A DNA stretch of 64,000 nt from an uncultured Candidatus Saccharibacteria bacterium (lineage in GTDB: Bacteria; Patescibacteriota; Dojkabacteria; J137): NCBI GenBank assembly GCA_965230975.1, contig OZ246402.1, forward strand, positions 800,859 to 864,858, in the 5' to 3' direction. Shown here piece by piece: positions 2,857-24,759 of this stretch (its first letter is position 1; every line of letters begins with the position of its first letter). Made by a program: the position numbers and the translations under genes. The notes beneath the pieces are model-generated. The model searched no databases. It was given only the letters and a program-made list of their open reading frames with translations, and was not told where the DNA came from.

Positions 2857-2998
2857 TAAGTATGATTTTCAAATTTAGACAATTAAATATAATATCATAG
2901 TTTTGTTTAATAAATTTAGCTAATGGACTTAATTTGCAAATTAGGCACTATATATCATTTATAGATTAAAACACCCTTAAAATGTTATAATATAAGGT

Positions 2999-7358: not shown

Positions 7359-8126
7359 ATGAACGAATATGCTTTAATTACCGGAGCGTCAAGTGGAATT
7401 GGATTAGCGTTAGCTTATGAATTTGCAAGTAAAGGTCATAATTTAGTCCTTGTTGCAAGGACTGAAGATACACTCAAAGAAGTTGCAAAAGCATTAGAAT
7501 CGCAATATGCAATTAAAACAGTAATTATCCCCAAAGATTTAAGTAAACCCGAATCGGCAATCCAATTATTTAAAGATATTGAAAAGCAGAATATATACAT
7601 TAAATACTTAGTTAACAATGCAGGAATTGGAGTTGGAGGCAAATATTTAGAATCTAGTATGGAAGATAATGTAAACTTAGTAAATCTCAATATAATTAAC
7701 TTAATAGAACTTACTCACTTATTTGCCAAGAAAATGCTTGCTACGAATGGCGGGAAAGTATTGAATGTTGCATCAATCGCTGCATTTTTTCCTGGGCCAT
7801 ATTTATCTACATACTATGCATCTAAAGCATTTGTATTAAGCTTTACAGAAGGATTAGCTGCAGAATATTCAAACTCTAACGTTACATTTACTGCACTATG
7901 CCCAGGTTTAACAGAATCTAACTTTGGGAAAAGAGCAGGGGTTGAGAAATCAAGCTTTTGGACACAAAAGAAAATGAGTGCCGAAGAAGTAGCAAAAATT
8001 GGGTACAGCGCTATGCAAGCTGGGAAAACTATAATAATTCCAGGTCTAAGTAATAGAATATTTGTAAGCATTGCTAAAAGAATTCCTAGAGCTTTATTAG
8101 CTCAATTTATTAAAAAACTTTTTTAA
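7359..8126 (+). CDS. short-chain dehydrogenase/reductase (SDR)
   Basis: TGASSGIG cofactor motif, NNAG, catalytic YxxxK (YYASK). Confidence 0.85.
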   Translation: MNEYALITGASSGIGLALAYEFASKGHNLVLVARTEDTLKEVAKALESQYAIKTVIIPKDLSKPESAIQLFKDIEKQNIYIKYLVNNAGIGVGGKYLESSMEDNVNLVNLNIINLIELTHLFAKKMLATNGGKVLNVASIAAFFPGPYLSTYYASKAFVLSFTEGLAAEYSNSNVTFTALCPGLTESNFGKRAGVEKSSFWTQKKMSAEEVAKIGYSAMQAGKTIIIPGLSNRIFVSIAKRIPRALLAQFIKKLF

Positions 8127-8127
8127 T

Positions 8128-9051: not shown

Positions 9052-9119
9052 ACTATACAAAATATTGAGAAATACCTTCTATAGGCTTATTTTAAGTGAT
9101 ATAATTCGTGGCATGTTTG

Positions 9120-9194
9120 GGGTTTGTAGCTCAGTGGTAGAGCAGTCGCCTCTTAAGCGATTGGTCGAGGGTTCGAATCCCTCCAAGCCCACCA
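9120..9194 (+). tRNA. tRNA-Lys (anticodon CUU), CCA encoded
   Basis: Acceptor GGGTTTG/CAAGCCC, anticodon arm GTCGC-CTCTTAA-GCGAT, T loop TTCGAAT, 3' ACCA. Confidence 0.9.
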
Positions 9195-9275
9195 TAATGT
9201 TCTTTAAAGAGTTTTAAGTTATAAGTTTTGATGGTAAAATCAAAGCGTTCTAAAATCTTAGAACATACACTACAT

Positions 9276-9348
9276 GTGCCCGTAGCTCAGTGGATAGAGC
9301 AACTGCCTTCTAAGCAGTAGGTCATACGTTCGAATCGTATCGGGCATA
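9276..9348 (+). tRNA. tRNA-Arg (anticodon UCU)
   Basis: Acceptor GTGCCCG/CGGGCAT, anticodon arm ACTGC-CTTCTAA-GCAGT, T arm ATACG-TTCGAAT-CGTAT. Confidence 0.85.
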
Positions 9349-9658
9349 TATATACAAACACTACCCAGATATAAACATAGAAGTAAACATTGAGAATAGC
9401 AAAACACAAAAATTTATGACTCAACTTGCTTGGGATTCTGGACTATTACCTACAAATTGGAATCAGTTCATAGAAGAAGCTGATAGACTAATCAGAGAAG
9501 AAAATGAGGTTGATTTTAAATAAATAATCAAAGAATGCTATATTTCAATTCATTAATCCAATTAAATACAAATTATTAGCAAAGTCTAGTTATTTAGTAA
9601 ATTTACAACTAAAAGTATTAAGTGCTATGATCTTTGAATAAATTATTAAACCACTAAT

Positions 9659-10009
9659 ATGGATTTTTTAAGACTTAGAAATTTTCCACAAGAGGAACAA
9701 TTAGAGTTACTAAGAAAACTTAGAATGTTACTAAGAAATTTAGAAAAAGGAACCTCTGATACCAGATTATCTAAAACACAAATTCAGTTTCTACATGGAT
9801 TCACTGGAGATGTAAGAAATTATATACGCTATCAAGGAAATCTTGGATCATTCGCTTTTATTTCATTTAACCGGTTAAATAGTAAGGGTCTTTACACAGA
9901 TCCTGATGGGAACACTAAAATGGAAGAACAAACTGCTGCAGAGATTGTACCAGAAATTTACGAAATAGGCATTCTGTTAGGTCTTTACGATATAGTCACC
10001 GAAGGTTAA
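9659..10009 (+). CDS. hypothetical protein
   Basis: 116-codon ORF in an otherwise empty interval. No recognisable motif. Confidence 0.4.
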   Translation: MDFLRLRNFPQEEQLELLRKLRMLLRNLEKGTSDTRLSKTQIQFLHGFTGDVRNYIRYQGNLGSFAFISFNRLNSKGLYTDPDGNTKMEEQTAAEIVPEIYEIGILLGLYDIVTEG

Positions 10010-10142
10010 ACCTTCTTATAATAACAAACATTGACTAACTAAAATTCAAAGAGTAATCATTTAGTGAGATTTACTAGAATTTTTATGACTTTCTTTTGAA
10101 TGAGGCATATTTTCTTTAAGTTTGAAAAAGAAGTTATAAAAC

Positions 10143-11267
10143 TTAGTTACAAACATTTGTAATAATAGGGTTGCCTCCTTCACATGCATACGGACTCTTA
10201 CTTACTAAAAACCTGGTTTGAGATTTGTTCACACAAGACCCCCAATTTGAATATGAAAAACCAGAGCAAATACGTTTATAAATCTTGTGATTTGTAAGTG
10301 CTATTTGCCCTAAATAGTAATGTTTGTCTTTTAAAGTTTTACTATAATTTGCATTATTTACATCAAATAAGTCCCTAATGTTCATTCCTAAACCTGAGTC
10401 AGTTGTTTTATAAATAAAAGTCAACATCCCAACAACCCTATCATTAGATTTAGCTAAATCTGCATATAGGTCAAAATTTCTAACTAATGAGTTTACAGTT
10501 CCACTATTGTAAGCAAAACCATCTGGAATCAACCAAATCTTCATTCTTTGTGGCAATTTTGCAACCATCTTATTAAAATATTCCATATACTTTGCAAAAG
10601 TTGCTTGAGGATATTGAGTAAAATAGTAATCAAAACCATAGTCTGTTATGTAATCTAAGATCCCAGCATAACTTGTTAATGCTTTTTCTAAAACATCATA
10701 ACCTTCAACAACCATTAGGTTTGTTTTTGGCAAATCAAATCTAATTTTAAGCAAAACCTTTAATAACTGATCTTTGCTAACTCCATTATAAAAAGGTTCG
10801 TCAAAATATATTGCATATATAGAATCCTCATAACCTTTTACACCTTCAAGAAAATCATTCCATCTTTTTTCCCAGTTAGATGCAAGTACTGCACCTTGAC
10901 CATTACCACCAGCTTTCAAGTCTGCAAAAAACACCCACTGAACACCTATTATCGCTTTCTGATAAGTATTGGTAAACGCTTGCATTTTTGCAGTCAAATC
11001 AGGTTTGTTTACCTCATAAATATTACCTTGTGCAGTTTTTATAATCACAGGAGCTGAAAAGTGCCCAATATTATTAGACCTAAGTTTATAACTTTCTTGA
11101 ATATATTCAACACTATCTAAACCCATATAACCAAAATATTTTAAATTTTGATTTGTTGAATATGCAGATGAGCTGTCTGGCGAGAGGTTGCTATTAACAA
11201 AAACTACTGAAAGCACTATTGAGCCTATAGTTAAGAAAACTATTAAAATTAGTAAAGATTTTCGCAT
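10143..11267 (-). CDS. secreted hypothetical protein with Cys-rich C-terminus
   Basis: N-terminal signal anchor MRKSLLILIVFLTIGSIVL. The alternating beta/alpha-like pattern (YFDEPFYNG, MVVEGY, WLIPDGF) hints at a TIM-barrel hydrolase, but I cannot assign a family. Confidence 0.5.
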   Translation of the reverse strand: MRKSLLILIVFLTIGSIVLSVVFVNSNLSPDSSSAYSTNQNLKYFGYMGLDSVEYIQESYKLRSNNIGHFSAPVIIKTAQGNIYEVNKPDLTAKMQAFTNTYQKAIIGVQWVFFADLKAGGNGQGAVLASNWEKRWNDFLEGVKGYEDSIYAIYFDEPFYNGVSKDQLLKVLLKIRFDLPKTNLMVVEGYDVLEKALTSYAGILDYITDYGFDYYFTQYPQATFAKYMEYFNKMVAKLPQRMKIWLIPDGFAYNSGTVNSLVRNFDLYADLAKSNDRVVGMLTFIYKTTDSGLGMNIRDLFDVNNANYSKTLKDKHYYLGQIALTNHKIYKRICSGFSYSNWGSCVNKSQTRFLVSKSPYACEGGNPIITNVCN

Positions 11268-11402
11268 AATTAAAAATGATATTTATCTATTGATTCTATT
11301 TAATATTTATTTAAATTACAACAAAAAATAGATATTAAATTTCAATTTAATATTCGCAACTGTACAAATAAATCGAATGCACCTTTCTGTTAATAGTATC
11401 AA

Positions 11403-11431
11403 TTGACGAACTGATACTATAGGCGTAATAT
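11403..11431 (+). promoter_or_regulatory. sigma70-like promoter candidate TTGACG-17-TAATAT
   Basis: The hexamers are 17 nt apart, and the -10 ends 32 nt upstream of the ATG at 11464. AT-rich DNA makes chance matches likely. Confidence 0.35.
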
Positions 11432-11463
11432 CAATATAACGTATTTTTAATATTTATATTTTT

Positions 11464-12432
11464 ATGGATAAAAACATCCATTCAATAATAGAAAGAATCA
11501 CTGGGGCGGTGTTTCTAATATTCTTAGGTTGCATACTTTTACTAAACTCAACAGGTGCATTGCCATGGAGTATTTGGGGTAATCTGTTTATGACTTTTTT
11601 TAGAATATGGCCAATATTCTTAATATTTGCAGGGTTTCAAATAATATTTTCTAGCAATAAAATTGCCAAAAGCGTTTTTGATATTGCATGGACAATATTA
11701 ATTATTGGAATATTCTCACTATCTATACTTGCATCTATTGGCAAAATAACATTGCCTGAGTGGACAAATAGTATTGGATGGAATTTAAGCTTTACCAATG
11801 CAAATTCTGTAACTCAAACCCAAGAATTAAAGTTTGAAGATTATCAAGACGTTTCAACTTTAGCTTATGAAATAAACGTACAGGCTGGAGAATTCAATTT
11901 AAGCTCAACTGATAGTTCGAATGCATACCTTACAACTAAGGCAGAATACAAAGAAAATATTGGAACTCCCAAAAGTGTCGTAGAACAAACTGGCTCTGAC
12001 ATGCTTATTAAGTTTTATCAAGAATTTGAAGGGATTGCATTTGGTGCTAGCAATTTCAAATACGATTTAACATTAGATTCTAACGATAAACCTACCAAAA
12101 TAGATGCTCAAGTAACAGCTGGTGATTTAAAAGCAGACTTAAGTCTACTAAAATTAACAGACTTAAAATTTTTAATGACGGCAGGTGATGCAAGAATTAA
12201 AGTAGGAGAAGAGGTTAAAGATATCAATGTTAAAGTAACAGCTGGAAAATTAACTTTATTAGTTCCAGAAATTTATAGACTTGAAATTGATGCAAATTCT
12301 ACAGCAGGCGATATTGATGTAGATGGGAAAGAGATAAATAGCGGTTCTACTGTTATAAACTCAACTGGAGAAAAAACATTAAAACTTGATTTAACTCAAA
12401 CTGCAGGTTCTATTGAAATAGAAAGAATTTAA
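11464..12432 (+). CDS. membrane protein with DUF4097/LiaG-like beta-helical repeat domain
   Basis: N-terminal TM helices, then five repeats of an xTAG(D/K/S) strand motif (VTAGDLKADL, MTAGDARIKV, VTAGKLTLLV, STAGDIDVDG, QTAGSIEIE). Confidence 0.55.
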   Translation: MDKNIHSIIERITGAVFLIFLGCILLLNSTGALPWSIWGNLFMTFFRIWPIFLIFAGFQIIFSSNKIAKSVFDIAWTILIIGIFSLSILASIGKITLPEWTNSIGWNLSFTNANSVTQTQELKFEDYQDVSTLAYEINVQAGEFNLSSTDSSNAYLTTKAEYKENIGTPKSVVEQTGSDMLIKFYQEFEGIAFGASNFKYDLTLDSNDKPTKIDAQVTAGDLKADLSLLKLTDLKFLMTAGDARIKVGEEVKDINVKVTAGKLTLLVPEIYRLEIDANSTAGDIDVDGKEINSGSTVINSTGEKTLKLDLTQTAGSIEIERI

Positions 12433-12452
12433 TTATTTATTAATATTATATT

Positions 12453-13133
12453 ATGAAGTCAGATACTTTAACTAAGCTAATAATTGGAGGTTTTTTAATC
12501 TTCTTAGGATTAGGGTTTTTAGGTGACCAAATACCTGGTGTAAATTTTGGCAGAATCTTTGCAATCTTTTGGCCGGTAGTGGTTATGTTAATTGGCTTAT
12601 ACATTATTTTAAAGACAAGAAGTCAGTTTTTTATTGGATCTATTGTAATGTTGTTGGGAGGGCTTTGGTTAGTAGATCAATTTATTGACTTACCATTTTC
12701 TATTTGGAATTTATGGCCTTTAGTTTTAATAGTTATAGGTTTAAGAATAATTTTCCCTGGTAAGGGTGGTAAATTTAACTATATTAACTCAAGTACTGTA
12801 ACAGACGATACTTTTGAATCTACAGCGGTTTTTTGGGGAGATAGTAGAAAAATAAAAAGCGAAAATTTAAAGATGGGTAAGATTACAGCAATTTTTGGAG
12901 GGAGTGAAATTGACTTAAGAGATGCAAATATTGCAAAAGATGGTGCAAATGTCGAGATTGTGGCAATGTTTGGTGGTGTTAGTGTTAAGGTTAACGAAAA
13001 TACTTTGGTAAAAAGTGATGGGTTAGGTGTATTTGGTGGATTTGAAGATAAATCTGCAAAACCAGCTAAGCCAAATGGGACAATAGTTATTAAAGGTTCT
13101 GCAATTTTTGGTGGAGTAGAGGTGAAGAATTAA
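12453..13133 (+). CDS. LiaF-like cell-envelope stress protein (DUF2154-type C-terminal domain)
   Basis: Four TM helices, then AIFGGSEIDLRDA, VAMFGGVSVKV and AIFGGVEVKN repeats. Confidence 0.6.
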   Translation: MKSDTLTKLIIGGFLIFLGLGFLGDQIPGVNFGRIFAIFWPVVVMLIGLYIILKTRSQFFIGSIVMLLGGLWLVDQFIDLPFSIWNLWPLVLIVIGLRIIFPGKGGKFNYINSSTVTDDTFESTAVFWGDSRKIKSENLKMGKITAIFGGSEIDLRDANIAKDGANVEIVAMFGGVSVKVNENTLVKSDGLGVFGGFEDKSAKPAKPNGTIVIKGSAIFGGVEVKN

Positions 13134-13169
13134 TAGATTTATTTGATTCTAGGATTTCTTTAGAAATTT

Positions 13170-13203
13170 ATACCGTCTCGATTTATCGAGACGGTATTTT
13201 TTT
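13170..13203 (+). terminator. rho-independent terminator
   Basis: 12-bp perfect stem ATACCGTCTCGA / TCGAGACGGTAT, loop TTTA, followed by T7. Confidence 0.75.
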
Positions 13204-13221
13204 GAAGAATATGCGAAAAAA

Positions 13222-13509
13222 TTAGGACTCTTTACTATTTGGAATAATAACTAGACCTAATTCTGTTGATCCATCAAATTTAACATCAAAGTCCTCTTGT
13301 GACACAGGTGTGCCTAATAGGTTTGGAGATTGGGCCATTTCTGTTTGTATACCCATTGCGGTTCTCCATCTTAAAAGAAATAAAGTTCTAATAAATTGTA
13401 TTCTTTTCTCATCAGGTAAATTCAATATATCCTGTTTATCTTGAGCACTTAAGCGTGCAAACATTCGCATTGCACTCTCGTCATTAAAAAATGAGGGGAA
13501 ATCTTCCAT
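13222..13509 (-). CDS. hypothetical protein
   Basis: 95-codon ORF between the terminator and a divergent intergenic region. No motif recognised. Confidence 0.4.
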   Translation of the reverse strand: MEDFPSFFNDESAMRMFARLSAQDKQDILNLPDEKRIQFIRTLFLLRWRTAMGIQTEMAQSPNLLGTPVSQEDFDVKFDGSTELGLVIIPNSKES

Positions 13510-13588
13510 AATTCTAAATTAAATATTATATATAATATAGCATATCAGATTTAACCCATATAACTTAAATTATTAGTAATTAGTTCTT

Positions 13589-13675
13589 AACACTACATAA
13601 ACAGTGTCAAAACAGTGCTAAATCTGGTTGATTTTAGGTCGGATTTAGCACTACTTCAGCACTGTTTATGTATCC
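13589..13675 (+). repeat. copy 1 of a ~88-nt imperfect palindromic element
   Basis: Outer arms TACATAAACAGTG / CACTGTTTATGTA and inner arms AGTGCTAAATC / GATTTAGCACT. It lies 66 nt upstream of the GNAT ATG. Confidence 0.8.
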
Positions 13676-13740
13676 ATCTAATTGTAATATTTCAAATAAG
13701 TTCATTTAACAAAATAGCTATAAATTAAATCTTTACTATC

Positions 13741-14475
13741 ATGTATAATTACTATATGGGTAAACTCTCAATAAAAATTGCATTCACAGAGGATGAATAT
13801 CTAGAATTCTACAACATTTATACAGATGCATTTAAAAATGAACCTGACGAAATTTTTAGCAAAGAAGAAGTACTCAAGTGGATAGATGAAACGGAAGACT
13901 ATGCAAATACCAAAATCTTTTTACTTTTAAAAGACAATATAACAGTTGGATTTGCAATATTGATGCATAAAGATGGAATAGGAAACATACCTTGGGCTGG
14001 AATAAAGTCCCAATATCAGGGCCATGGATTATATTCTCAATTTATTAACCTAATGATAGATACTATTTTTAATGAGTTAAACATTAATATTCTTACAAGA
14101 GAGTGTGATAACCCAGAAGTATTAGAAGGCAATGTAAAAAAGTTTGCTATAAAAAGATTGTCTATGTTTAGAGAAAAACTAAATAGTAAATTTTATAATA
14201 ACAACGAGTTTGTATATTTTAGAGAAGACCCTAAATCACCAAACGAAAGAACTTATAAGTACTTGTTTGGATTCACACTATTAAAACCTAATTCAAACTG
14301 GGAAATTACTAATAATAAAGTTAGTAAAAAAGATTTTAAGAAATTAGTTCAATATAGAATTTTCTTTGAAAGAGGTATTTTTGAAATTGAAAAACAATTA
14401 CAAAGTAACCCGGTTGTTAAAGATTTATACCAAGAGATTGATAACTTGAAAGAGGAGTATTTAACTATAGAATAA
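13741..14475 (+). CDS. GNAT-family N-acetyltransferase (putative)
   Basis: VGFAILM beta strand followed by a Q/RxxGxG/A-like motif, QYQGHGLYS. Confidence 0.5.
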   Translation: MYNYYMGKLSIKIAFTEDEYLEFYNIYTDAFKNEPDEIFSKEEVLKWIDETEDYANTKIFLLLKDNITVGFAILMHKDGIGNIPWAGIKSQYQGHGLYSQFINLMIDTIFNELNINILTRECDNPEVLEGNVKKFAIKRLSMFREKLNSKFYNNNEFVYFREDPKSPNERTYKYLFGFTLLKPNSNWEITNNKVSKKDFKKLVQYRIFFERGIFEIEKQLQSNPVVKDLYQEIDNLKEEYLTIE

Positions 14476-14476
14476 A

Positions 14477-15439
14477 TCAAAAGCTTGCTACCTTATTCTT
14501 AATTAATTCTTTTATAGATTCTAATGAATCTATATCATAAACAGAGCAAGTTAATACATCTTTATTAACCATTTTTAATTCTTTTAATTTTTGAGCAACT
14601 ACATCTGGTTTTACTAAATCTGTTTTAGTTAACAACACAACTTCTGGCTTGTTATATAAATCCAAGTCAATATTCTTAAGCTCAGCTCTAATTTTTTTGT
14701 ATTCTTCAACAACGTTTTCGTTTTCACAACTTACTAAGTGCATAACAAACTTTGCACTTCGGGTATGTTTAACAAAACTTGTACCTAAACCTTTACCTTC
14801 AAAGGTGCCTTCAATTAGTCCCGGCAAGTCCATAATGGTGATTCCGTTAAGTCTACCTAGTTGAGGGTTTAAAGTTGTAAAGGCGTAAGATGCAACTTTG
14901 CTTTGTGCGTTTGTAATCGAATTTAACAGTGAGGACTTGCCGGCGTTGGGAAACCCTATTAAAAGCACATCACTATATAGTTCTAATTCTAAATTGGCAT
15001 CTAAAACTTCACCTTCTTTTCCTTCATCAGATCTATGCAAATTTTCAATTCCTTTTGTTCTGTAAAAATGATTACCTAAACCACCAAGGCCACCCTTTAC
15101 TATTAATTCTCTTTGTCCATCTTTAGATATAGAAAATAATAAATTGCCGTGTTTATCATAAATGTTCGAGGTTAAAGGAACCTTCATTATAATATCTTTA
15201 CCGTTTTTTCCTGTAAGATTTTTGTCACCTCCTGGTTGGCCGTTTTCTGCTTTGATTGTAAAGTCTAAGTATATTGAGTTTAAATCATAAGTAATTGCAG
15301 ATCCTTCTACATAAATGGAACCACCATTGCCCCCAATTCCTCCTTCTGGGTTTCGACCTTTGTAAAAGGCAATGGCTCCGTGGCCACCTTTGCCGGCAAT
15401 AAATTTTAATCCTATTTTGTCTTTAAATTTTTTATCCAT
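14477..15439 (-). CDS. obg: GTPase Obg/CgtA (short form)
   Basis: Gly-rich Obg fold (GGHGAIAF, GGNGGSIY, GGLGGLGN), G1 GFPNAGKSS, G3 DLPGLIEG, G4 TKTD. Confidence 0.9.
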   Translation of the reverse strand: MDKKFKDKIGLKFIAGKGGHGAIAFYKGRNPEGGIGGNGGSIYVEGSAITYDLNSIYLDFTIKAENGQPGGDKNLTGKNGKDIIMKVPLTSNIYDKHGNLLFSISKDGQRELIVKGGLGGLGNHFYRTKGIENLHRSDEGKEGEVLDANLELELYSDVLLIGFPNAGKSSLLNSITNAQSKVASYAFTTLNPQLGRLNGITIMDLPGLIEGTFEGKGLGTSFVKHTRSAKFVMHLVSCENENVVEEYKKIRAELKNIDLDLYNKPEVVLLTKTDLVKPDVVAQKLKELKMVNKDVLTCSVYDIDSLESIKELIKNKVASF

Positions 15440-15649
15440 AATTAATCTTATTGAAAATATTTAGTTACCGATTGTTGTATTTCTATAGGGTGCTACTATA
15501 ACATATTTACTTAATAAGTAGGATAGCAGATTTAAACAAAAATAGTAATTCAGTTTACAGTAAACTATAAACTGTTTTAAATTAAATAAAATTATCCTTA
15601 AATTGTGTAAGTGTTAATTTTCCTAGATAATAAGTCTGTTTTTTAAACG

Positions 15650-15738
15650 GTCATTACAGAAACGGTGCTAATACAGTGCTAAAACAAAGCTAAAAACGGT
15701 CAAATTTAGCACTGTTATGACACTGTTTATGTAGTGTT
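15650..15738 (-). repeat. copy 2 of the ~88-nt palindromic element (inverted relative to copy 1)
   Basis: The reverse complement begins AACACTACATAAACAGTGTCATAACAGTGCTAAAT, and by hand alignment about four fifths of positions match copy 1. It lies ~210 nt upstream of the obg ATG. Confidence 0.8.
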
Positions 15739-15820
15739 ATGAGATACAACATTAGCTAAGTTCTTAGTTTAAGTATCAATATTTGTTTGGAGAGATAAAA
15801 CATCTCAAATATGAAGATAT

Positions 15821-15845
15821 AAAACTGCCAGCATTTCGCTGGCAG
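15821..15845 (-). terminator. rho-independent terminator downstream of the heliorhodopsin gene
   Basis: 8-bp GC-rich stem CTGCCAGC / GCTGGCAG with a 5-nt loop. On the minus strand it is followed by TTTTATAT. Confidence 0.6.
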
Positions 15846-15879
15846 TAATTTATCTTCAACAACTAGGATTTAGCAAATA

Positions 15880-16656
15880 TTATTGTGGCCTTAAAGTTCC
15901 GCTAAAGATTTGCCAAGCTAGGGCACTTTTAGCAACCAAACTTAAGATTATGTACATTCTTTCTCCAAAAATATAGCTTTTCCATGGTCCAACTTTTTTG
16001 TATTGCAAGAACATGTTTAAAGCAAATATATTAAAGAAAATGAATATAGAAGCCAAGATTGCGTATACAAAGCTTGGAATATTTGTACTTACAGATTGAA
16101 CTGCTCCGTAAAAATACATTCCAACTGCAACCCAAGGCACTATTCCTGCAAAGCAACCGAAAATGTAAGATGTCCAATTTGTTTTTTCTGTAGTTTGATT
16201 ATGAAGTTCCATCATTAAACCAAATAGGTTCATTGTTGCGTTTAAAGCAAATATTAAAATCAAGCTTGGTAAATCAAACATTCCGCACAATATTGCGATT
16301 GCTACAATCATTACGCTAGAACTTAATGCGTATTCGTACCATCTTAAATAGTTGATTTTCTTTTTTAAGTTTTTAACATACCATTCGTTTATTCCAGGCA
16401 ATATTATTAAAAAGTGAAAGAATGCAGATAAGAATAAGAATACTGCTATAAATTGACCTAGATTTAGTTTTAAAGCCTCTTGTGTCACCGGTAAAACTGT
16501 TCTTGCTTGAATATTAAAGTCTAGATATGTTGTTGTTAGTGGTATTTGAAAGTCTTTACTAACAAGCAACATCGCAATTCCTTGCACCAAGTGCAACACA
16601 AACATTACCGCATTGAATATGCGTAAGTTCTTAAATGTACGAGCTTCTTTATCCAT
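15880..16656 (-). CDS. heR: heliorhodopsin
   Basis: Seven TM helices with long collinear matches to the prototype HeR 48C12 as I recall it: RWYEYALSSSVMIV (counterion Glu), FGCFAGIVPWV, and LSLVAKSALAWQIFSGTL (retinal Lys). Conserved His residues sit in VLHLVQG and AFFHFLI. Confidence 0.9.
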   Translation of the reverse strand: MDKEARTFKNLRIFNAVMFVLHLVQGIAMLLVSKDFQIPLTTTYLDFNIQARTVLPVTQEALKLNLGQFIAVFLFLSAFFHFLIILPGINEWYVKNLKKKINYLRWYEYALSSSVMIVAIAILCGMFDLPSLILIFALNATMNLFGLMMELHNQTTEKTNWTSYIFGCFAGIVPWVAVGMYFYGAVQSVSTNIPSFVYAILASIFIFFNIFALNMFLQYKKVGPWKSYIFGERMYIILSLVAKSALAWQIFSGTLRPQ

Positions 16657-16729: not shown

Positions 16730-17305
16730 TTAACCTTCTTTATTTAATTTATATTGTTCGTAAACTAAATCTTCTTCTTTTGCAGAGAGTAGATTCATCG
16801 ATTTTAATCCAGTAATAATTTCTAAAATTCCTTTTTTGCCTATTCCTATTACAGGAAACTCATCTGTACCATGCAATAACTGGTATTTTACATAACCCAC
16901 TAAATGATATTTCTTTCTTTTTAAAACATTATGATAAATTGTAGATAGATTTAATGTGTCAATACTTACAGAAGGGTATTTCTCACTATTATTTTCACCT
17001 ATCAAGCTAATTATAATTGACTCGGTGTTTTGTATATTTACGGTTTTTAAGACTAAACCCGCTTCTAATCTATCTATATACCCTCTGTTAAACAAATTAA
17101 CTATTAGGTCTTGATATGATTCTCTAAACCCACCTGGAATATCTACAAGACCACCATTTCTAAAGTATCTTAGTCGTTTTAGTAAATCAGCAATCGTATA
17201 AATCCCTTTAGATTTTAAATGATCAATAAAATTATCTGGTAGTTCTAAAACTGCAATATCTAAATTTGTATCTTTATTTTGTAAGTAATCTGGTTGTGAA
17301 CTCAT
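16730..17305 (-). CDS. protein with two RNA polymerase alpha-CTD-like helix-hairpin-helix modules (short paralog)
   Basis: LELPDNFIDHLKSKGIYTIADLL and LNLSTIYHNVLKRKKYHLVGYV...IGIGKKGILEIITGLKSMNL follow the RpoA CTD pattern LxLSVRxxNCLKxxxIxxIGDL...NLGKKSLxEI. Confidence 0.65.
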   Translation of the reverse strand: MSSQPDYLQNKDTNLDIAVLELPDNFIDHLKSKGIYTIADLLKRLRYFRNGGLVDIPGGFRESYQDLIVNLFNRGYIDRLEAGLVLKTVNIQNTESIIISLIGENNSEKYPSVSIDTLNLSTIYHNVLKRKKYHLVGYVKYQLLHGTDEFPVIGIGKKGILEIITGLKSMNLLSAKEEDLVYEQYKLNKEG

Positions 17306-17339
17306 TTTATGGATATTAACTTGGTTGCATACTACTTTT

Positions 17340-18251
17340 CTATACTTCTAAAGGAATATCATATTTAGCTAATATTTGGATAAACTGATCTTGAGTAATA
17401 TACCCTTTCTGAATTAATTGGCTTGCTATCTCTTTAATTGATTTTTTTGAAAATTGGTTTAAAAGTAGTGGAGTTGATATTTCAAGCAACATGAATTTAA
17501 TCTCACCAACTGTGTGGTAACCATTTATGAATAAATTAAAGTGTAAACTTGAATCTAAGGATAGCGCACCCAATGGAATTTCCGGATATTCCTCGCTTGT
17601 ATTGGCTCCTAATAACCTAATTAAATCCAATTGTCCTGCACCTCTATTTAAACACTTAATGTATACTTCGGCTTCTATTCTGCTAAATAAGTTCATTTTA
17701 TAAAGTTTAGCAATACAGTCGCTAAAATCGTAAGGTGTAGAACCATTATCTATTCTTATTCCTCGCTTGACTAAAGACTTTAGAAGGTCCATAAGTTGAC
17801 CGACAGTATTAATATTGCTTTGATTGACAAGGCTTTGTAAGTCCTCATTTAAATCTAGCACACTTACATTGAGGGCTGCTGCATCTTCAGGGGATATTGG
17901 TTGACTTAGTAAGTAGTCTTTAAAGTCTGCTACTGTTAAGGTGGCAATATCGGGCAAAGTTTGTTGTATATCTGAAAGTAGTCTTATAACTTGTGCATGC
18001 TTTGTGGTATCTACTTCACCTTCATTTGCCAATACTTGGATTTTTGCTAATGCTAATGCTTTTATTGCTGGGAATTCCGGATTGATATTTGGGTTATTTG
18101 CTACATAGTTAAGGTAGCTAGCTATTGATATATCTGTAAAGCCGGCATCTAGTAATTGTTTTATTTGTAATTCCAAAACTGTATTACTTGTTGGGGGGAT
18201 TACATCCGGATCCTGTAATCGTGTATAAACTGGGAAATGCTGAAATGCCAT
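17340..18251 (-). CDS. alpha-CTD-like double-module protein (long paralog 2)
   Basis: The C-terminal ~190 aa are collinear with ORF 16730-17305 (RIEAEVYIKCL, LLGANTSEEYPEIPL, LSLDSSLHFNLFINGYHTVGEI). I prefer the ATG at 18251 over GTG 18287 because it aligns with the N-terminus of paralog 1. Confidence 0.6.
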   Translation of the reverse strand: MAFQHFPVYTRLQDPDVIPPTSNTVLELQIKQLLDAGFTDISIASYLNYVANNPNINPEFPAIKALALAKIQVLANEGEVDTTKHAQVIRLLSDIQQTLPDIATLTVADFKDYLLSQPISPEDAAALNVSVLDLNEDLQSLVNQSNINTVGQLMDLLKSLVKRGIRIDNGSTPYDFSDCIAKLYKMNLFSRIEAEVYIKCLNRGAGQLDLIRLLGANTSEEYPEIPLGALSLDSSLHFNLFINGYHTVGEIKFMLLEISTPLLLNQFSKKSIKEIASQLIQKGYITQDQFIQILAKYDIPLEV

Positions 18252-18353
18252 ATCAAGTTGAGTAATATGTATACTCGATATTAACACCTTGTTACTAATT
18301 TAGACAATCAGTTTTGTCATATCTTTTGCGTAACAAAGGTGGATAATTATTAG

Positions 18354-19286
18354 TTAGGCCTCAATTTCAAATCTGGCATATATTTCTTTTTTGTAATCTT
18401 CCTCCGATTTCTCATCATCTTTAAAATATCCTTTAGATATTAAAGCCTCAGTTATTCCTTTTATTCCACTTACCCCTATATTCTTAACATTGAATTCAGG
18501 GCCTCCAAATAAAAGCTCGTGTTTAACTTCTCCTATAAAAATATAACTACCTCTCATTAAAGCATTATATGTTCTTCTAGGAAGATCTAATTCAGATATA
18601 TCTATAGAAGGGAAACTTTCACTATTATTAGCTCCTATCAAGTTATCTACTTGACTCTCATCAGGAAATCTTGCAATAAATCTTAAATACAAACCTGCTT
18701 CTATTCTAGATATATAATTTAATTCAAATAGTTGAACTACTAAATCTATAAAAACTGGGTTATTCATAATACGACTAGCAAACTGGTAATCTTCTCTGAT
18801 TGTTCTTAAGAGCTGTACTAAATCTGAAATATTTTGAACGTTTCTTGATTCTAAAAGTGCTCTTAATTCTCCACTAGGTCTAATCATTTCGATTGAATCT
18901 TGTAAGTTGCCTGGAATTCCTGATTGCATTGTGGATTGATATATAAAATCCAAAAAACTTTCAACTGTTAGTGCTGATAAGTCTTCTGAGTTATCGTAAG
19001 CATATTGTAAAAGTGCGTTTAATTTTAAATAGTTTGATTCTTCAATATCACCTTTCTGTACTAATTGTTTTATTCTAAGTAAAACTACAGAAGTTATTGC
19101 AGAGTAGGTGGATTTATCTATTGATTCTAAGTTTTGTAAGTATGCAAAATATAAACTTATTTGAATATCTTCAAAATCGTTTGCTAAGATTTGAGATATA
19201 AGAGCTAAAAGATTATCTGCATGAATCTTTACATTTTCTGGTAAATCTTCAGAACTTAAGTAATTGTTTAGAGCTGCAAATACCAT
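18354..19286 (-). CDS. alpha-CTD-like double-module protein (long paralog 1)
   Basis: ELDLPRRTYNALMRGSYIFIGEVKHELL...NIGVSGIKGITEALISKGY closely mirrors the RpoA CTD. An upstream degenerate module reads ELRALLESRNVQNISDLVQLL. Confidence 0.65.
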   Translation of the reverse strand: MVFAALNNYLSSEDLPENVKIHADNLLALISQILANDFEDIQISLYFAYLQNLESIDKSTYSAITSVVLLRIKQLVQKGDIEESNYLKLNALLQYAYDNSEDLSALTVESFLDFIYQSTMQSGIPGNLQDSIEMIRPSGELRALLESRNVQNISDLVQLLRTIREDYQFASRIMNNPVFIDLVVQLFELNYISRIEAGLYLRFIARFPDESQVDNLIGANNSESFPSIDISELDLPRRTYNALMRGSYIFIGEVKHELLFGGPEFNVKNIGVSGIKGITEALISKGYFKDDEKSEEDYKKEIYARFEIEA

Positions 19287-19359: not shown

Positions 19360-20187
19360 CTAAAGTTGAACCTCTTTATTTTTGTACCTTAAAAGTGAAA
19401 GCGCAACCAAAATTACAATTGCGACAATCATTACAATTATATTTTCTGGCTTTAAACTACTAGTCTTGGTAATTCCATTTAAATCTAAATAATAGAACGG
19501 TGTTAAATACCGTACAAATTCTGGAAAACCTGGAATTCGCGATAACGTATCTACCATAAAAGAGCCTAGAGTTAATGCTAAACCTGCAAACAAGGCAACA
19601 CCTTCTGACTTAACTAACCCAGCAAACATGGCAATTACACTAAATAGTATTTGAACTATAAAGCCTGCGCTAAAAGCAGCAAAAAAGAATTGAGGATAAA
19701 ATGCGTTTTCACTACCCAAAAACTTAGAAGACAAACTAGAAATTAATAGCACAACTAAATTACTTATTCCAAGCAGTACTACAAAAGCTGCAAATTTAGT
19801 TAAGAATATGTTTTGTCTTTTAATCTTTTTTAAAAACAATATAAATACAGAACCATCATTTAACTCTTTAACAATCATTCTGTTTAAAATATAGCCGCCA
19901 ATAATCGAGTTGATTATTATTAATGTAGATAAAAACTTTGTGTTGTAATAGCCTTTAAATTCAACCAACGTTTTAGCATCAGATCCAAATGCCTCTAGTA
20001 GTTCTGGAGGGAATCCTTTTAAGACTTCTGTTAGTTGAGCTGCCTGCTCTTTGATTGTTCCAAACAATGCTATTAACATTACAGCCATAGAGGCGAATAT
20101 TAATCCCCAAAAGATCATTAACTTTAAATGTCTTTTAAATTCAAACATAAAGACCGTTGTGGATTTGTTTAGTTCTGTTTTATTCAT
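19360..20187 (-). CDS. ABC-2 type transporter permease
   Basis: Six hydrophobic helices. Overlaps the upstream ATPase gene by 8 nt. Confidence 0.7.
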   Translation of the reverse strand: MNKTELNKSTTVFMFEFKRHLKLMIFWGLIFASMAVMLIALFGTIKEQAAQLTEVLKGFPPELLEAFGSDAKTLVEFKGYYNTKFLSTLIIINSIIGGYILNRMIVKELNDGSVFILFLKKIKRQNIFLTKFAAFVVLLGISNLVVLLISSLSSKFLGSENAFYPQFFFAAFSAGFIVQILFSVIAMFAGLVKSEGVALFAGLALTLGSFMVDTLSRIPGFPEFVRYLTPFYYLDLNGITKTSSLKPENIIVMIVAIVILVALSLLRYKNKEVQL

Positions 20188-21058
20188 AATATTTCATAAA
20201 AATATCTTCTAGTGTTGGGTGTTCTATATAAAAGTCTGTTATGTCGTTTTCAAATAGAGTAGTTACGTCCTTTTTTACATCGCTTGTTAAGATTATGTAG
20301 TCTCCATTATCGTTTTGGGTTATTCCTTTTTTGAATATGTTTCTTAGTTTTTTAGATTCTTTGCCAAATTCTATTCTTATTTTTTTAGAATCTCCGTTTA
20401 GCACTTTTTTGGTGTCTCCTTCCATTAATATTTTGCCGTCTTTTATTAGTATTATTCTGTCTGTTATTTTTTCTACTTCTGATAGTACATGAGAGCTAAA
20501 GAATATTGTGCTGCCTGTTTTTTTTAGTTCTGTTAGTTCTTTTAGTACTTTGTTTTGCATTATTGGGTCTAGTGAGTTTGTTGGTTCGTCTAGTATTAAT
20601 AGTTTTGGTTTATGTTGTAATGCATTTACTATTGCTACTTTCTTTTTATTACCTAATGATAGTCTTCCAAACTTTTTGTTTAAATCTATTTCAAAGCTTT
20701 GTATTAAATGGTCAAAGTATTGTTTATCAAAGTTTTGGGATAATGATGCTGAGTAGTTTAGTATTTCTTTTACCGTTAAGCTTGTTGGAAATGTTGGTTC
20801 TCCTGGTAAGAATCCTATTTGTTCTATTACTTTTTGTAGATCTTCTAATGTTGTTATTTGCTCTCCAAACAGTTTATAACTCCCACCTGTTAGATTGGCA
20901 AAACCCAATATTGTTCTTATTGTGGTTGTTTTGCCGGCGCCGTTTGGGCCTAAGAATCCTACAATTTCGCCTTTGTTTAGCGTTATGTTTATGTTAAAGG
21001 CTCCTTTGTTGTTTGTGTATGTTTTGGTTAGGTTTGTGGTTTGTAGTATTGGGTCCAT
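20180..21058 (-). CDS. ABC transporter ATP-binding protein (ABC-2/DrrA-like)
   Basis: Walker A GPNGAGKTT, signature LSLGNKKKV, Walker B LILDEPTNSLD, H-loop SSHVL. Confidence 0.9.
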   Translation of the reverse strand: MDPILQTTNLTKTYTNNKGAFNINITLNKGEIVGFLGPNGAGKTTTIRTILGFANLTGGSYKLFGEQITTLEDLQKVIEQIGFLPGEPTFPTSLTVKEILNYSASLSQNFDKQYFDHLIQSFEIDLNKKFGRLSLGNKKKVAIVNALQHKPKLLILDEPTNSLDPIMQNKVLKELTELKKTGSTIFFSSHVLSEVEKITDRIILIKDGKILMEGDTKKVLNGDSKKIRIEFGKESKKLRNIFKKGITQNDNGDYIILTSDVKKDVTTLFENDITDFYIEHPTLEDIFMKYYE

Positions 21059-21159: not shown

Positions 21160-21235
21160 GGTGGTTGTAGCTCAATGGTAGAGCACTCGCCTGTGGAGCG
21201 AGGTGTTGTGGGTTCGAGCCCCACCAACTACCCCA
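21160..21235 (+). tRNA. tRNA-His (anticodon GUG) with encoded G-1 and CCA
   Basis: G-1 followed by acceptor GTGGTTG/CAACTAC, anticodon arm CTCGC-CTGTGGA-GCGAG, T arm GTGGG-TTCGAGC-CCCAC, discriminator C, CCA. Confidence 0.9.
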
Positions 21236-24152
21236 AATTTGATTCTTCCCATTCTTTTTTATACTCGTAGTAATTAGGTGATCTATTCTCAATAAAAGTG
21301 TTCAGAATTTCCTCAATTTTATCGGCTGGCTCTTTAAATTCAATTAACTTTTTAACGGCCTGATCCATATGGTCTGAAGGATTTAGACCCTTTGGATAGT
21401 TAGCTAAATAATCCATCCATTTTATGAATTCTTCTTTACCTGCTTTATTTAATATTTTCAGTAGGATGTCTCCATTCTTGTAAAATGGCCACCAATTCAA
21501 CTGTGATAAATCATTTTGACCTTTAAAGAACTTTCTCTCATTAATAATACACTTAGTCCAAAGTGAGAAGCATTCTGTGAATTTCTCATCAATATTCTCT
21601 TCTATGAAATAATAGATTCTTTCATAGATTTCGTGATTATAAACTTTTGTGAATTTCTCTAAATATTTAATAGCAATTTTAAAATTTTCATTATGATGCG
21701 ACTTATCTGATCCTAGTCTCCAGAAATTCCATGCGATATTTACTTTAATACTCTCAGAGGAATTTTCCATCAAATCAAACAATATGCTTTTGAATGGCTT
21801 ATCATTAAAGGTGTTGACTTTGTACCAATAGTCCTTACCCAAAACTGCTTCAAAAGCTTTGGATTTATAAGCTTTTGCTCTAAATTCCGCATAGAAGATT
21901 ATCAATGGAAGGAAGTGGTCTATAACTACCTCATAAGGTGATTTACTTGATCTGTTATTGTATACATTTGTCAAAGGTAAATTCAATATTATATTTACAA
22001 ATTTCATTGCTTTATCCTCTTCTATACTCCTCATAAAGCCAAAAACGTTAACTATAGACTTCATTAATTCCATAACAGATTGATTATTTTTATCTACTAG
22101 CATATCAAAAGCGATTGATTCTATTTCTTGTGCTAGTTCGAATGAAATAAATCTTTCAACAGGCATAATATTTGGCATTTTTGTATGCCTGTTTTTCGCG
22201 AGTTCAGTTAAAGGTACGCATGCTTGCATTCTTACATAGTAACTTGAATCTTGAGATAAAATCCTTACAAGTTTCGTAACTTCAGCTAAATAAGCCCGCC
22301 CACTTAAATTACAAAAATATAACAATGCCCAAGCACAATAACCCCTAACTGTTGTAATTATTGAAACTTCATTTTCATTTTTAAGCAAATCTAATTCAAC
22401 ACTATCCTCATGAATTGGATCTTTATCTTGAATAAATATTCTTATTAACTTTAAAGACTCATCAAAAAACTTATTTCTTGCCAATTTCTCAGCAAGTTTA
22501 ACTATGTTTTGTCTTGCTAAATTTTCGCTAAAGAATTGTTCAATTTGAGCAATATTATTATCATATTTAGTCAGTATTGGATCTAATACCCTATAAACCT
22601 GTATAAATAAATCCGAATCATCAGGTATGTAATCAATAATACTAGTAATTGAATTTTGTTGATTTGGAGTTAGTGTTACTTCGTTTAATATATTACTTAT
22701 AAGTGTAGTACCCTTATTTATATCTTTTTGAAGTATGGTAACTAACAATCTCGAAAATTTAAATACCTCAAAATGTTCTGTTTCGATCTTAAATTTATCA
22801 GTATTAACATAGTTGGTTAGGGCATCGATGCCTTCGTCAAAACTTATATCCGAACTGATTAATTTACTTATTATCTCAAACGGATTGAAGCCCCAATGAC
22901 CATGTCGTTTCAAATAAGTAGAGTTATTTAACCAGACTTTTAATATCTCATTTGCTTCAGTATTACCTTCAGCAGCAAGGTCTGACACGATTTGCTCAAC
23001 AAACACATTTGCCGGTGCTCCGTTATATCCCTTTATCTTTAACTGTTCTTTAACATAGTCTAATTTTACTGTGCCAGAAAGTTTCTTTGAGTTTCTAAGT
23101 GCCTGAAAAATCAATTCTGTTTTATAAGGGATTCCACTTCTCATCAGAATAAACTTCTTAAGAATATATTTAGTTTCTTTGACATACTTATCTTCTTCTA
23201 GATTCTGAATTAGTAAAGGAATAACAGCTCTATTAAGAAAATCTGGCCTTTTTGTGTTAATCTTTTTCTCATCAACCTCTATCAAATTTTCTTTTATATA
23301 ATTCCAGGTTTCATCATCGAACTTATAAAATTCTTCAAGAGCTGGAGTTAGTGCATACATCACAAAGTGCCTATCAAATAGAGAATGTTCATCATTCAAA
23401 CTTGATATTCCAGCACCCATATGTTCCCATCCTTTAAATCCATCTTTTATACCTATTCTCTTATAGTCTTGTTTATACTGCTTGACTATAATCTTTTTAA
23501 TTTTTAAGAAATTACTTTCAAAATCGAGATTAATATAATTCCTGAGAATAGTGAATACTGTTTTAGGAGTATATAAATCATATTCTCCATCACCAGCTAC
23601 TAAGTTAAAATATTTATCAAGTAAGAAAACAATCTCTGCTAATTCTTCAATCTGATTAATCATTTTAGATGAAGCATTTCCCAATAATTCTGCAACTTGT
23701 ATTTTTTCGTGCTCTAATTTATTTCTATGATCTAAGGATTTATAGCTATGTCCTCTATGTGTTAGTACTATTTTAACTATAGTAATTAAGTCATTATATT
23801 GTAGTAAATTATTATTAAACATCGTATTTAATGTATGAAGAAGACTATTTGATTCAAATTCAAGAAAGCCATCTATATTATTGACGAGAAGTTCAAGGAA
23901 AAACGACTTGCCTATTTGTGGATAATTATCCTCGAGTGTTTTTAAGACCAAAAAATATTCTCGATTTTTAATCAAGAAGTCTATTAAACTGATAAAAATT
24001 TCGTTATTAAAGTTATTCGTAAGTTCTTTTAGGTAGTATCTTAGCATCATAGGATCATGTACGATCTCGTTAAGAGATGCAATATCTTTCTCACTTAGGT
24101 GCTGTTTGTCTAAAGTTTCTTTTATTTTTGATATTTTATAGAGCTGGTTCAT
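21228..24152 (-). CDS. 974-aa all-helical repeat protein (HEAT/ARM-like), unknown function
   Basis: No TM helix or signal peptide. It shows a repetitive amphipathic helix pattern, and VRGYCAWALLYF...YVRMQACVPLTELAKN resembles HEAT repeats. The 3' end overlaps the tRNA-His 3' end antisense by 8 nt. Confidence 0.6.
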   Translation of the reverse strand: MNQLYKISKIKETLDKQHLSEKDIASLNEIVHDPMMLRYYLKELTNNFNNEIFISLIDFLIKNREYFLVLKTLEDNYPQIGKSFFLELLVNNIDGFLEFESNSLLHTLNTMFNNNLLQYNDLITIVKIVLTHRGHSYKSLDHRNKLEHEKIQVAELLGNASSKMINQIEELAEIVFLLDKYFNLVAGDGEYDLYTPKTVFTILRNYINLDFESNFLKIKKIIVKQYKQDYKRIGIKDGFKGWEHMGAGISSLNDEHSLFDRHFVMYALTPALEEFYKFDDETWNYIKENLIEVDEKKINTKRPDFLNRAVIPLLIQNLEEDKYVKETKYILKKFILMRSGIPYKTELIFQALRNSKKLSGTVKLDYVKEQLKIKGYNGAPANVFVEQIVSDLAAEGNTEANEILKVWLNNSTYLKRHGHWGFNPFEIISKLISSDISFDEGIDALTNYVNTDKFKIETEHFEVFKFSRLLVTILQKDINKGTTLISNILNEVTLTPNQQNSITSIIDYIPDDSDLFIQVYRVLDPILTKYDNNIAQIEQFFSENLARQNIVKLAEKLARNKFFDESLKLIRIFIQDKDPIHEDSVELDLLKNENEVSIITTVRGYCAWALLYFCNLSGRAYLAEVTKLVRILSQDSSYYVRMQACVPLTELAKNRHTKMPNIMPVERFISFELAQEIESIAFDMLVDKNNQSVMELMKSIVNVFGFMRSIEEDKAMKFVNIILNLPLTNVYNNRSSKSPYEVVIDHFLPLIIFYAEFRAKAYKSKAFEAVLGKDYWYKVNTFNDKPFKSILFDLMENSSESIKVNIAWNFWRLGSDKSHHNENFKIAIKYLEKFTKVYNHEIYERIYYFIEENIDEKFTECFSLWTKCIINERKFFKGQNDLSQLNWWPFYKNGDILLKILNKAGKEEFIKWMDYLANYPKGLNPSDHMDQAVKKLIEFKEPADKIEEILNTFIENRSPNYYEYKKEWEESNLG

Positions 24153-24759
24153 TTATATTTTCTATATTAGTATTGATTGGATTTTCTATATACTTTTTTA
24201 TTTGAGGATCATTAGCATTACTTGGAAATCTGTCATCTCTTAAAATATTACAAATTCTTCTAAAATCATCAACATTGAATTTATAGTTTTGTGAATATTT
24301 TTCGTTGTAACAATGAATTGTTGACTGAATTTTTCTTGCTATGTCTCGACCATTTGCAAAACGAAAGAAAAGATACCCTCCATTAATACGACTAAGGATA
24401 TGTAACTTGGCTGCATGGTTAAAATCACCCGAAGTAACAATATACAATTCTCCAAGTTTACCAGCATCATGCAACATTGTGAATTCATTGTTAAGCGCCT
24501 CACTTGCCTGATTACAAACTGTCCGAATATCCTTATCCGTATTTCCACTTTTTACAATATCTTCAGCTTTTAATAAAACACCTCCTATTAAACGATCAGA
24601 AGAGTAGAAATCACAAAAAGTATAAAGAATATCAACTCCATTTTCGGAGTTACCGTGATTATCTTCAACAAAATGATAGTTGACTTCATACAATGGGATT
24701 ATAACCTTTAACCTCAGAGTATTTTCGTCTAAATGTTTTATCTCATCTTCAATTGACAT
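24136..24759 (-). CDS. Mrr-cat/PD-(D/E)xK-like restriction-endonuclease-fold protein (putative, atypical active site)
   Basis: The element order matches Mrr_cat: helix ...IIPLYE, GVDILY (Asp), GGVLLKAED (xxK strand), then ELYIVTSGDFNHAAK (compare ITTSxFTxxA). The position usually held by E/Q is Leu. It overlaps the downstream gene by 17 nt. Confidence 0.45.
   Translation of the reverse strand: MSIEDEIKHLDENTLRLKVIIPLYEVNYHFVEDNHGNSENGVDILYTFCDFYSSDRLIGGVLLKAEDIVKSGNTDKDIRTVCNQASEALNNEFTMLHDAGKLGELYIVTSGDFNHAAKLHILSRINGGYLFFRFANGRDIARKIQSTIHCYNEKYSQNYKFNVDDFRRICNILRDDRFPSNANDPQIKKYIENPINTNIENINEPAL

Follow-up and report, generated by a model that had tools for sequence, protein, structure and literature searches.

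A small family of divergent alpha-CTD-derived proteins, arrayed in tandem upstream of a heliorhodopsin gene and exchanged in modules between Dojkabacteria-like strains

What kind of protein is encoded three times over between an ABC-2 exporter gene pair and a heliorhodopsin gene (heR), and does its position beside heR say anything about its role? The locus lies on contig OZ246402.1 of assembly GCA_965230975.1, in a stretch of 64,000 nucleotides (nt) (contig positions 800,859 to 864,858) that we call the window and whose positions serve as coordinates throughout. The three proteins, here A, B, and C, resemble the C-terminal domain (CTD) of RpoA, the alpha subunit of RNA polymerase (RNAP). The alpha-CTD is a hub linking UP elements and many activators to bacterial RNA polymerase. 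We conclude that A, B, and C represent a new, very small family whose members join an N-terminal domain (N-domain) to a double alpha-CTD-derived core, are encoded in tandem arrays, and undergo rapid modular evolution; this much is secure. Their function is predicted: we read them, with a probability of about 0.5, as lineage-specific, rapidly diversifying transcription accessory or adaptor proteins derived from the alpha-CTD. The genes and their modules (M1 and M2, the first and second halves of the core) are as follows; they, the neighboring genes, the promoter-like sites, and the terminator all lie on the minus strand.

18354..19286, minus strand: paralog A, 310 aa; N-domain at residues 1 to ~120, then M1, then M2
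18678-18914, minus strand: M1 of paralog A (residues 125-203)
18393-18617, minus strand: M2 of paralog A (residues 224-298)
17340..18251, minus strand: paralog B, 303 aa from ATG 18251; helical N-domain, M1 at 17649-17885, M2 at 17367-17591
16730..17305, minus strand: paralog C, 191 aa, the core alone; M1 at 17039-17275, M2 at 16757-16981

A first-pass annotation, made from the sequence alone, had described these open reading frames as paralogs with a two-module core of ~190 aa, extended in A and B by a helical N-terminal region of ~120 aa, and each of these points stands. By BLASTP the paralogy of the three predicted proteins is far above chance (A-B 9e-28, A-C 1e-23, B-C 3e-15). Their common core consists of M1, a conserved helical linker, and M2; the linker motif L-x-G-x-N-x-SE-x-x-P does not vary among A, B, and C and is largely retained in the alleles of other strains.

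Profile comparisons identify M2 as a true alpha-CTD homolog. A profile built from the M2 modules of the family alone retrieved ~50 RpoA chains from the PDB (best E 7.8e-7), and a three-paralog profile matched canonical alpha-CTD repeats among 1.84 billion proteins at E 1e-9 to 1e-14. The Pfam model RNA_pol_A_CTD (PF03118; cutoff, 23.8 bits) recognizes C (31 bits) and the distant relative L002b (25.2 bits); A (19.9 bits), its counterpart P0004 from another strain (19.0 bits), and the distant relative P0050 (18.4 bits) fall below the cutoff, and B gives no match. With the NCBIfam and Pfam rpoA models, only the final ~70 positions match, at 14 to 28 bits against cutoffs of 227 to 434. The C-terminal module had been said to track the RpoA CTD almost residue for residue; homology and fold hold up, but the identity of M2 to the E. 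coli alpha-CTD is 17 to 23%.

In M1, no alpha-CTD was recognizable by sequence search against the PDB. Profile-to-profile alignment with hhalign nevertheless joins M1 to M2 over 67 columns (probability 89.5%, E 2e-6), and the helix pattern of M2 recurs in M1 of the predicted model. We conclude that M1 is a degenerate duplicate of an alpha-CTD-type module. The predicted models also recover the alpha-CTD fold, a compact helix-hairpin-helix pair, (HhH)2, with four or five helices: Foldseek, the check that the first-pass annotation had proposed, returned this fold with a probability of 0.96 to 0.97 and TM scores of 0.63 to 0.78 normalized to the target. The model of C is a compact core with a predicted TM score (pTM) of 0.82, and 2jzb appeared among its matches. 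The same general (HhH)2 fold occurs in the RAD51/RAD51C N-terminal domain, NusA AR1/AR2, and the TfoX C-terminal domain. The RpoA-type N-terminal dimerization and assembly domain (RNA_pol_L / RNA_pol_A_bac) was looked for in the paralogs and is absent; the rpoA gene of this genome lies outside the window. The family thus differs from the alpha-CTD of RpoA in having no alpha-N-terminal domain (NTD) and no link to RNAP assembly, and in its rigid M1-M2 duplication, fused in A and B to a novel N-domain.

Which of these modules could still engage DNA as the alpha-CTD does? We take the 265 determinant to comprise R265, N268, C269, G296, K298, and S299 (E. coli numbering, with the index checked). Paralog A retains the equivalents of R265, N268, N294, and G296 (its R238, N241, N269, and G271). 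P0004 and P0005, A alleles of other strains, retain R265, N268, and G296; both have lost S299, and K298 is left in P0004 alone. B is degenerate (R265->S, N268->F, G296->S), and its counterpart P0002 is also without R265, N268, and G296. R265 is lost from C as well (R265->I), where N268, G296, K297, and K298 are retained. In the distant pair, R265 is present in both proteins, and N268 and G296 are present in L002b only, P0050 being without them. All M1 modules are without R265 and G296 and carry a nonbasic, often acidic residue at the R265 position; an Asn at the N268 position occurs in two of them (P0004 and P0005). Given this pattern, at most one module per array appears fit for alpha-CTD-style minor-groove binding, and the remaining modules look like protein-contact modules. 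In NusA, the acidic (HhH)2 domain AR2 contacts the alpha-CTD and not DNA, so that M1, B, and C may have a functional parallel in it.

The helical extension of ~120 aa that precedes the core in A and B is confined to this family: searches of the PDB, Pfam, and 5.8 billion proteins brought up no sequence relative beyond its members. Its matches to UvrA and to a core-binding domain of the tyrosine-recombinase type (E 0.35 to 0.57) were insignificant and were rejected as an identification, and a match of L002b to XerA (E 0.02) was not taken as one either. The N-domain model resembles, at moderate model confidence, the non-haem-globin-like N-terminal sensor of the stressosome protein RsbR, pXO2-61, RsbU-N, and KaiA-C. 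We assign these fold matches to the N-extension because they are gone with the model of C, which is without this domain. The paralogs show none of the RsbR-type stressosome features that were looked for (sequence similarity and a STAS domain), and the helical-bundle resemblance of the predicted N-domain is no evidence of membership in the RsbR-type sensors.

How widespread is the family? A full HMMER search over 1.84 billion cluster representatives returned about five full-length clusters, namely, the three window proteins, P0004, and P0005, together with P0050, which consists of an N-domain and a single alpha-CTD-like module. A further ~78 matches covered the M2 part only; about one-third of these were looked at, and they include RpoA fragments and varied non-RpoA proteins with one to six near-consensus alpha-CTD repeats. 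Word-indexed searches with A, with a 7-sequence family alignment, and with an N-domain alignment returned only the query and the distant L002 pair, which confirms the rarity. Similarly, scans of A, B, and C against genome, metagenome, and viral collections found no relatives. The family comprises cytoplasmic, acidic proteins that are very rare and restricted to a Dojkabacteria-like lineage of the candidate phyla radiation (CPR).

The non-RpoA proteins (P0006, P0007, P0019, P0020, P0023, P0028, P0030, P0038, P0039, and P0082) deserve mention in their own right. Some stand alone at 80 to 100 aa, and others are fused to a sigma-70 region-4-like helix-turn-helix or to helicase modules (alpha-CTD with such modules in P0006, P0020, and P0030). 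P0009, P0011, and P0013 are RpoA C-terminal fragments in which two tandem alpha-CTDs follow the alpha-NTD, which suggests that the RNAP alpha subunit of some lineages has its CTD in duplicate. Free-standing alpha-CTD-like proteins had been called not a described system. No study of such proteins, or of non-RpoA alpha-CTD domains, was found in the literature, but the alpha-CTD outside RpoA is not new, because the databases hold numerous non-RpoA proteins with one to six canonical domains. The divergent window family itself is new. P0007, P0019, P0023, and P0028 are likewise free-standing or repeated, and the family profile matches them at E 1e-14 to 1e-3; their repeats, however, are near consensus and strung on linkers (Pfam 47 to 210 bits, against 0 to 31 bits in the window family), whereas the window family has its own N-domain, a conserved intermodule linker, and about five clusters. 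We regard the finding as a divergent variant of a known domain class and not as a categorically new system.

The family is markedly mosaic between closely related strains. L004, a 3.1-kb ENA contig, carries ABC-2, P0004 (the A counterpart), and P0002 (the B counterpart). In L005, a third A allele (P0005) precedes a B N-domain that agrees with the window protein at each of its first 111 residues (94% at the nt level). L086, a Logan contig of 31.8 kb, carries the ABC, ABC-2, B, C, and heR genes; A is missing as a clean ~1-kb indel, and the A-B intergenic sequence comes directly 3' of the ABC-2 gene. Nucleotide identities to the window, with synonymous divergence (dS) and the nonsynonymous-to-synonymous ratio (dN/dS) between the window and L086, are as follows.

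ABC and ABC-2: 80-100% in L004; against L086, dS 0.18 and dN/dS 0.08 (ABC), dS 0.30 and dN/dS 0.08 (ABC-2)
All of A: ~45-55% in L004
A-B spacer and B N-domain: 95-99% in L004; B N-domain 69% in L086
B core: ~40-60% in L004; 98% in L086, dS 0.07, dN/dS 0.13
C: 94% in L086, dS 0.07, dN/dS 0.76
heR: 90.5% in L086, dS 0.59, dN/dS 0.03
Obg (flank): 80% in L086, dS 1.39, dN/dS 0.07
GNAT (flank): 68% in L086
LiaF-like genes (flank): 68-78% in L086

The N-domain and core of B have thus been exchanged independently, the N-domain being kept in L004 and the core in L086. Three different A alleles occur among the strains, the replacements being 25 to 33% identical, and one strain is without A. The mosaic of identity and dS marks the locus as a recombination hot spot at which paralogs and single domains are swapped, gained, and lost. 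Hypervariation of the diversity-generating retroelement type was rejected, from the pattern alone: the divergence covers whole genes or domains (~45 to 55% nt identity) and not short A-biased tracts.

The only distant relatives are a tandem pair, P0050 and its 190-aa sibling L002b, in a different genome of 1.14 Mb (L002). Each consists of an N-domain and one alpha-CTD-like module. Their genes are flanked by mfd and uvrA, and neither heR nor an ABC-2 gene occurs within 10 kb. Tandem pairs or triples therefore recur in the window, L004, L005, L086, and L002. The placement of the L002 pair (7368-14244 of that sequence) beside uvrA and the gene for the transcription-repair coupling factor, mfd, may be coincidental or may suggest a tie to transcription-coupled or UV-damage repair. 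A separate observation concerns the end of L004, where the 143 nt after the B ortholog (2997-3139) hold two tandem ~34-nt units, CACTTCTTTTAGGTAAAAGATTCGATAACTCTCT, in place of a C gene. The unit resembles TCCACCTTTGTTACGCAAAAGAT, an element that in the window comes after the A stop codon (18321-18343) and in L086 after ABC-2; cassettes might be exchanged at such a junction element, although it may also be an artifact of the contig end.

Could this variability be the mark of an arms race? The paralogs might be decoys or mimics, imitating the RNAP alpha-CTD so as to intercept the factors directed at it, or to be sensed by them; such factors, for example, phage or host-derived modifiers and binders, would drive hypervariability and presence/absence. 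The extreme mosaicism between near-identical strains, with ABC genes at 91 to 100% nt identity and A at ~45 to 55% (about 35% at the aa level), would fit this idea, as would the multiple A alleles beside an A-less strain and the independent exchange of the two parts of B. Furthermore, dN/dS is 0.76 in C and 0.33 to 0.55 in other segments, against 0.03 to 0.08 in the neighboring genes, and the locus abuts a tRNA-His gene with a strain-variable island beyond it. Yet the comparison covers just four or five strains, and positive selection is inseparable from allele replacement because the divergent segments are saturated. Nor do the proteins carry an effector domain or match known defense or phage families: PADLOC and PHROG profiles gave no matches to A, B, C, P0004, P0005, or P0050, tblastn against 50,697 phage records gave none, and IMG/VR held no loci. 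A phage or defense origin of the family was rejected on the absent PHROG, PADLOC, and phage tblastn matches, and we consider a decoy role unlikely, albeit the first alternative to keep in view.

Another reading of the same data could be that the paralogs are decaying or functionless duplicates, selfish or neutral orphans under relaxed constraint. The great rarity of the family, the presence or absence of A by strain, the dN/dS of C, and the loss of functional residues in B and C all point that way. Reading frames are intact in every strain compared, however, even at 25 to 35% identity; the predicted folds are confident, the B core evolves at a dN/dS of 0.13, and both the linker motif and the promoter regions are conserved. 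We rate loss of function as quite improbable.

The surroundings of the array were examined for a functional partner. As the first-pass annotation had it, an ABC-2 exporter pair lies upstream and heR follows after a 73-nt gap; the intervening features are the following.

20180..21058, minus strand: ABC ATPase, upstream neighbor; syntenic with the paralogs in L004 and L086, not in L002
19360..20187, minus strand: ABC-2 permease, upstream neighbor; syntenic with the paralogs in L004 and L086, not in L002
19308..19337, minus strand: promoter-like site 5' of A, TTGATA-18-TAACAT with a TG extension, by consensus match alone
18252..18353, minus strand: A-B intergenic sequence with promoter-like TTGTCT-N17/18-TGTTAATAT; 87% identical in L086
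17306..17339, minus strand: B-C spacer, 34 nt, identical in L086
16689..16717, minus strand: heR promoter-like site, TTGACT-17-TACCAT, within the 73-nt C-heR gap
15880..16656, minus strand: heliorhodopsin (heR), downstream neighbor; Pfam PF18761, E 1e-99
15824..15846, minus strand: strong intrinsic-terminator-like hairpin, 3' of heR

The genes for the ABC ATPase, the ABC-2 permease, A, B, C, and heliorhodopsin thus form a run, closed by the hairpin, that is uninterrupted on its strand; the G+C content of the window is ~31%. The hairpin is the sole predicted terminator from the ABC promoter through the end of heR. We placed the start of B at ATG 18251, in place of the mechanically listed GTG 18287, because all family members begin with M[AVT][FL] and the GTG sits within the promoter-like TGTTAATAT. 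B and C are probably cotranscribed, since their 34-nt spacer leaves no space for a separate promoter, and read-through from C into heR is possible because no terminator is predicted between them.

This arrangement would suit cytoplasmic regulators or accessory subunits of the ABC-2 exporter, for example, proteins that govern the transporter operon or tie it to some signal. On one strand, the ABC and ABC-2 genes are followed by the paralogs in the window, L004, and L086, with no predicted terminator between the two sets. These three are close relatives, however, so the synteny is not independent evidence, and the L002 pair has no ABC transporter nearby. Moreover, A and B each have their own promoter-like site, and strong purifying selection on the ABC genes contrasts with the free swapping of the paralogs. 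An exporter-linked role therefore strikes us as doubtful, slightly more so than that of a decoy.

The downstream neighbor had prompted the proposal of a light-linked transcription module, in which the paralogs would pass a signal from heR to transcription. C and heR do adjoin, co-directionally and with no terminator between them, in the window strain and L086, and the ABC-to-heR stretch is closer between these genomes (dS 0.07 to 0.59) than flanking Obg (1.39). Heliorhodopsins are thought to signal via partner proteins (PMC9529153, PMC8612252), and their occurrence in Dojkabacteria is already known (PMC9166423). As in the described partner systems (heR-glutamine synthetase, PMC9529153; the heR neighbors of PMC8612252), the candidate gene here stands directly upstream of heR on the same strand; the window neighborhood differs in the type of protein and in being conserved in two related strains only.

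The wider evidence runs against such a module. We surveyed 80 heR loci from GTDB species representatives, ~6 kb to each side, among them three from Dojkabacteria and several from Saccharibacteria, Paceibacteria, and Parcubacteria; neither a family member (at E <= 1) nor an alpha-CTD-like module (at E <= 0.01) turned up at any of the 80, in a survey of the kind that the first-pass annotation had proposed as a check. The closest heRs, 79% identical and from Candidatus Dojkabacteria metagenome-assembled genomes, have unrelated neighbors; at the nearest heR locus (L006) the neighbors are entirely different, and an exact-sequence look-up of the window heR returned no record. A published survey of heR neighborhoods does not mention RNA polymerase or alpha-CTD-type neighbors. 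Conversely, the L002 pair occurs without heR, and in L004 the sequence after the B ortholog, 143 nt up to the contig end, contains neither C nor heR. The earlier caution that heR may have its own promoter was well placed: the 63 nt 5' of the heR start codon, which include the promoter-like site, are 100% conserved in L086, while the heR coding sequence is 90.5% identical and the sequence farther upstream diverges. In addition, dS differs eight-fold between C and heR, so the two do not share one common history. The adjacency is real in the window strain and its relative L086, the only places where it occurs, but it is no property of either gene family; heR is counted here as a downstream neighbor only, and its link to the paralogs is weak. 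We hold a light-linked module to be as improbable as functionless duplication.

Several further features were recorded around the locus. Next to the ABC promoter region, on its upstream side, the tRNA-His gene on the plus strand (21161-21235) borders the strain-variable island (window 21161-24759; L086 1-7250), and past this gene the L086 genes are unrelated to those of the window. On the window side are two overlapping orphan genes of 974 aa (21228-24152) and 207 aa (24136-24759), for which Pfam, PHROG, and PADLOC searches gave zero matches; on the L086 side are five unrelated genes of unknown kind and an AAA_15/AAA_21 ATPase. The island may be an integration hot spot or a defense island. Downstream of heR, the order of Obg and GNAT is swapped between the window (13741-15879) and L086 (11551-13384). 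In the window, 440 nt (15440-15879) are noncoding and include a long imperfect hairpin (arms 15652-15683 and 15705-15736); a structured RNA, in this stretch or elsewhere in the locus, was rejected (no Rfam match; folding z-score, -0.98). Two adjoining LiaF-like membrane proteins (LiaF-TM; one with a DUF4097 "toastrack") are encoded at 11464-13133, and their identity to the L086 counterparts illustrates the background divergence between both genomes. Elsewhere in the window (35268-47838), a giant open reading frame of 3202 aa has fn3 and purple-acid-phosphatase-N-like domains and a surrounding G+C of 0.37, against 0.31 elsewhere; directly after it comes a fused ABC ATPase and MacB/FtsX-like permease of 986 aa. 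Such an arrangement is typical for CPR surface-protein loci.

How, then, might alpha-CTD-derived accessory proteins work? The core would present a rigid pair of (HhH)2 modules, M1 and M2, joined by the helical linker. A-type copies could dock on A/T-rich, UP-element-like DNA via their retained minor-groove residues, whereas B, C, and all M1 modules would probably work by binding other proteins, be these A-type partners or the usual contacts of the alpha-CTD. The N-domain of A and B could serve sensing or oligomerization, and the array evolves by tandem duplication, whole-gene loss or replacement, and recombination at the N-domain/core junction. Several observations weigh against this accessory or adaptor role. 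The K298 and S299 equivalents are missing even in A; the proteins are acidic (pI 4.5 to 4.8 for A and B, 4.1 to 4.5 for their N-domains); and no shared DNA motif or repeat that could be a binding-site candidate was found beyond chance in the intergenic regions of the locus. The N-domain matches are generic helical bundles, with a model pLDDT of 64 to 83 in that region. Relaxed constraint would likewise be compatible with the dN/dS of C and with the presence or absence of A by strain, and binding to DNA or RNAP, contacts with activators, and any regulatory target are predictions from sequence rather than direct observations.

A bolder form of the idea would make the array a recombining cassette system of alpha-CTD mimics, coinherited with heR in this lineage. 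Sensor-like N-domains, strain specific and interchangeable, and cores with two alpha-CTD modules would then work in trans on the transcription machinery, either as decoys for alpha-CTD-targeting factors or as stand-in alpha-CTD arms through which promoter or activator use is rewired. We would back this form a little less readily than a role with the exporter; if it is true, CPR bacteria would have a new class of transcription modulators that diversify.

The most interesting feature of the locus, absent from the first-pass annotation, is the cassette-like, domain-level diversification between near-identical strains. Whole-gene allele replacement and domain swapping, here between strains with flanking genes above 90% identity, are uncommon for a cytoplasmic regulator-like protein and point to strong strain-specific selection. 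The searches have also exposed a large, apparently unstudied class of non-RpoA proteins made of canonical alpha-CTD repeats. If our reading of A, B, and C as transcription accessory or adaptor proteins is true, this free-standing, duplicated, fast-diversifying alpha-CTD derivative would give a CPR bacterium with a genome of 1.2 Mb and few regulators a new means of modulating transcription, or of being targeted through it.

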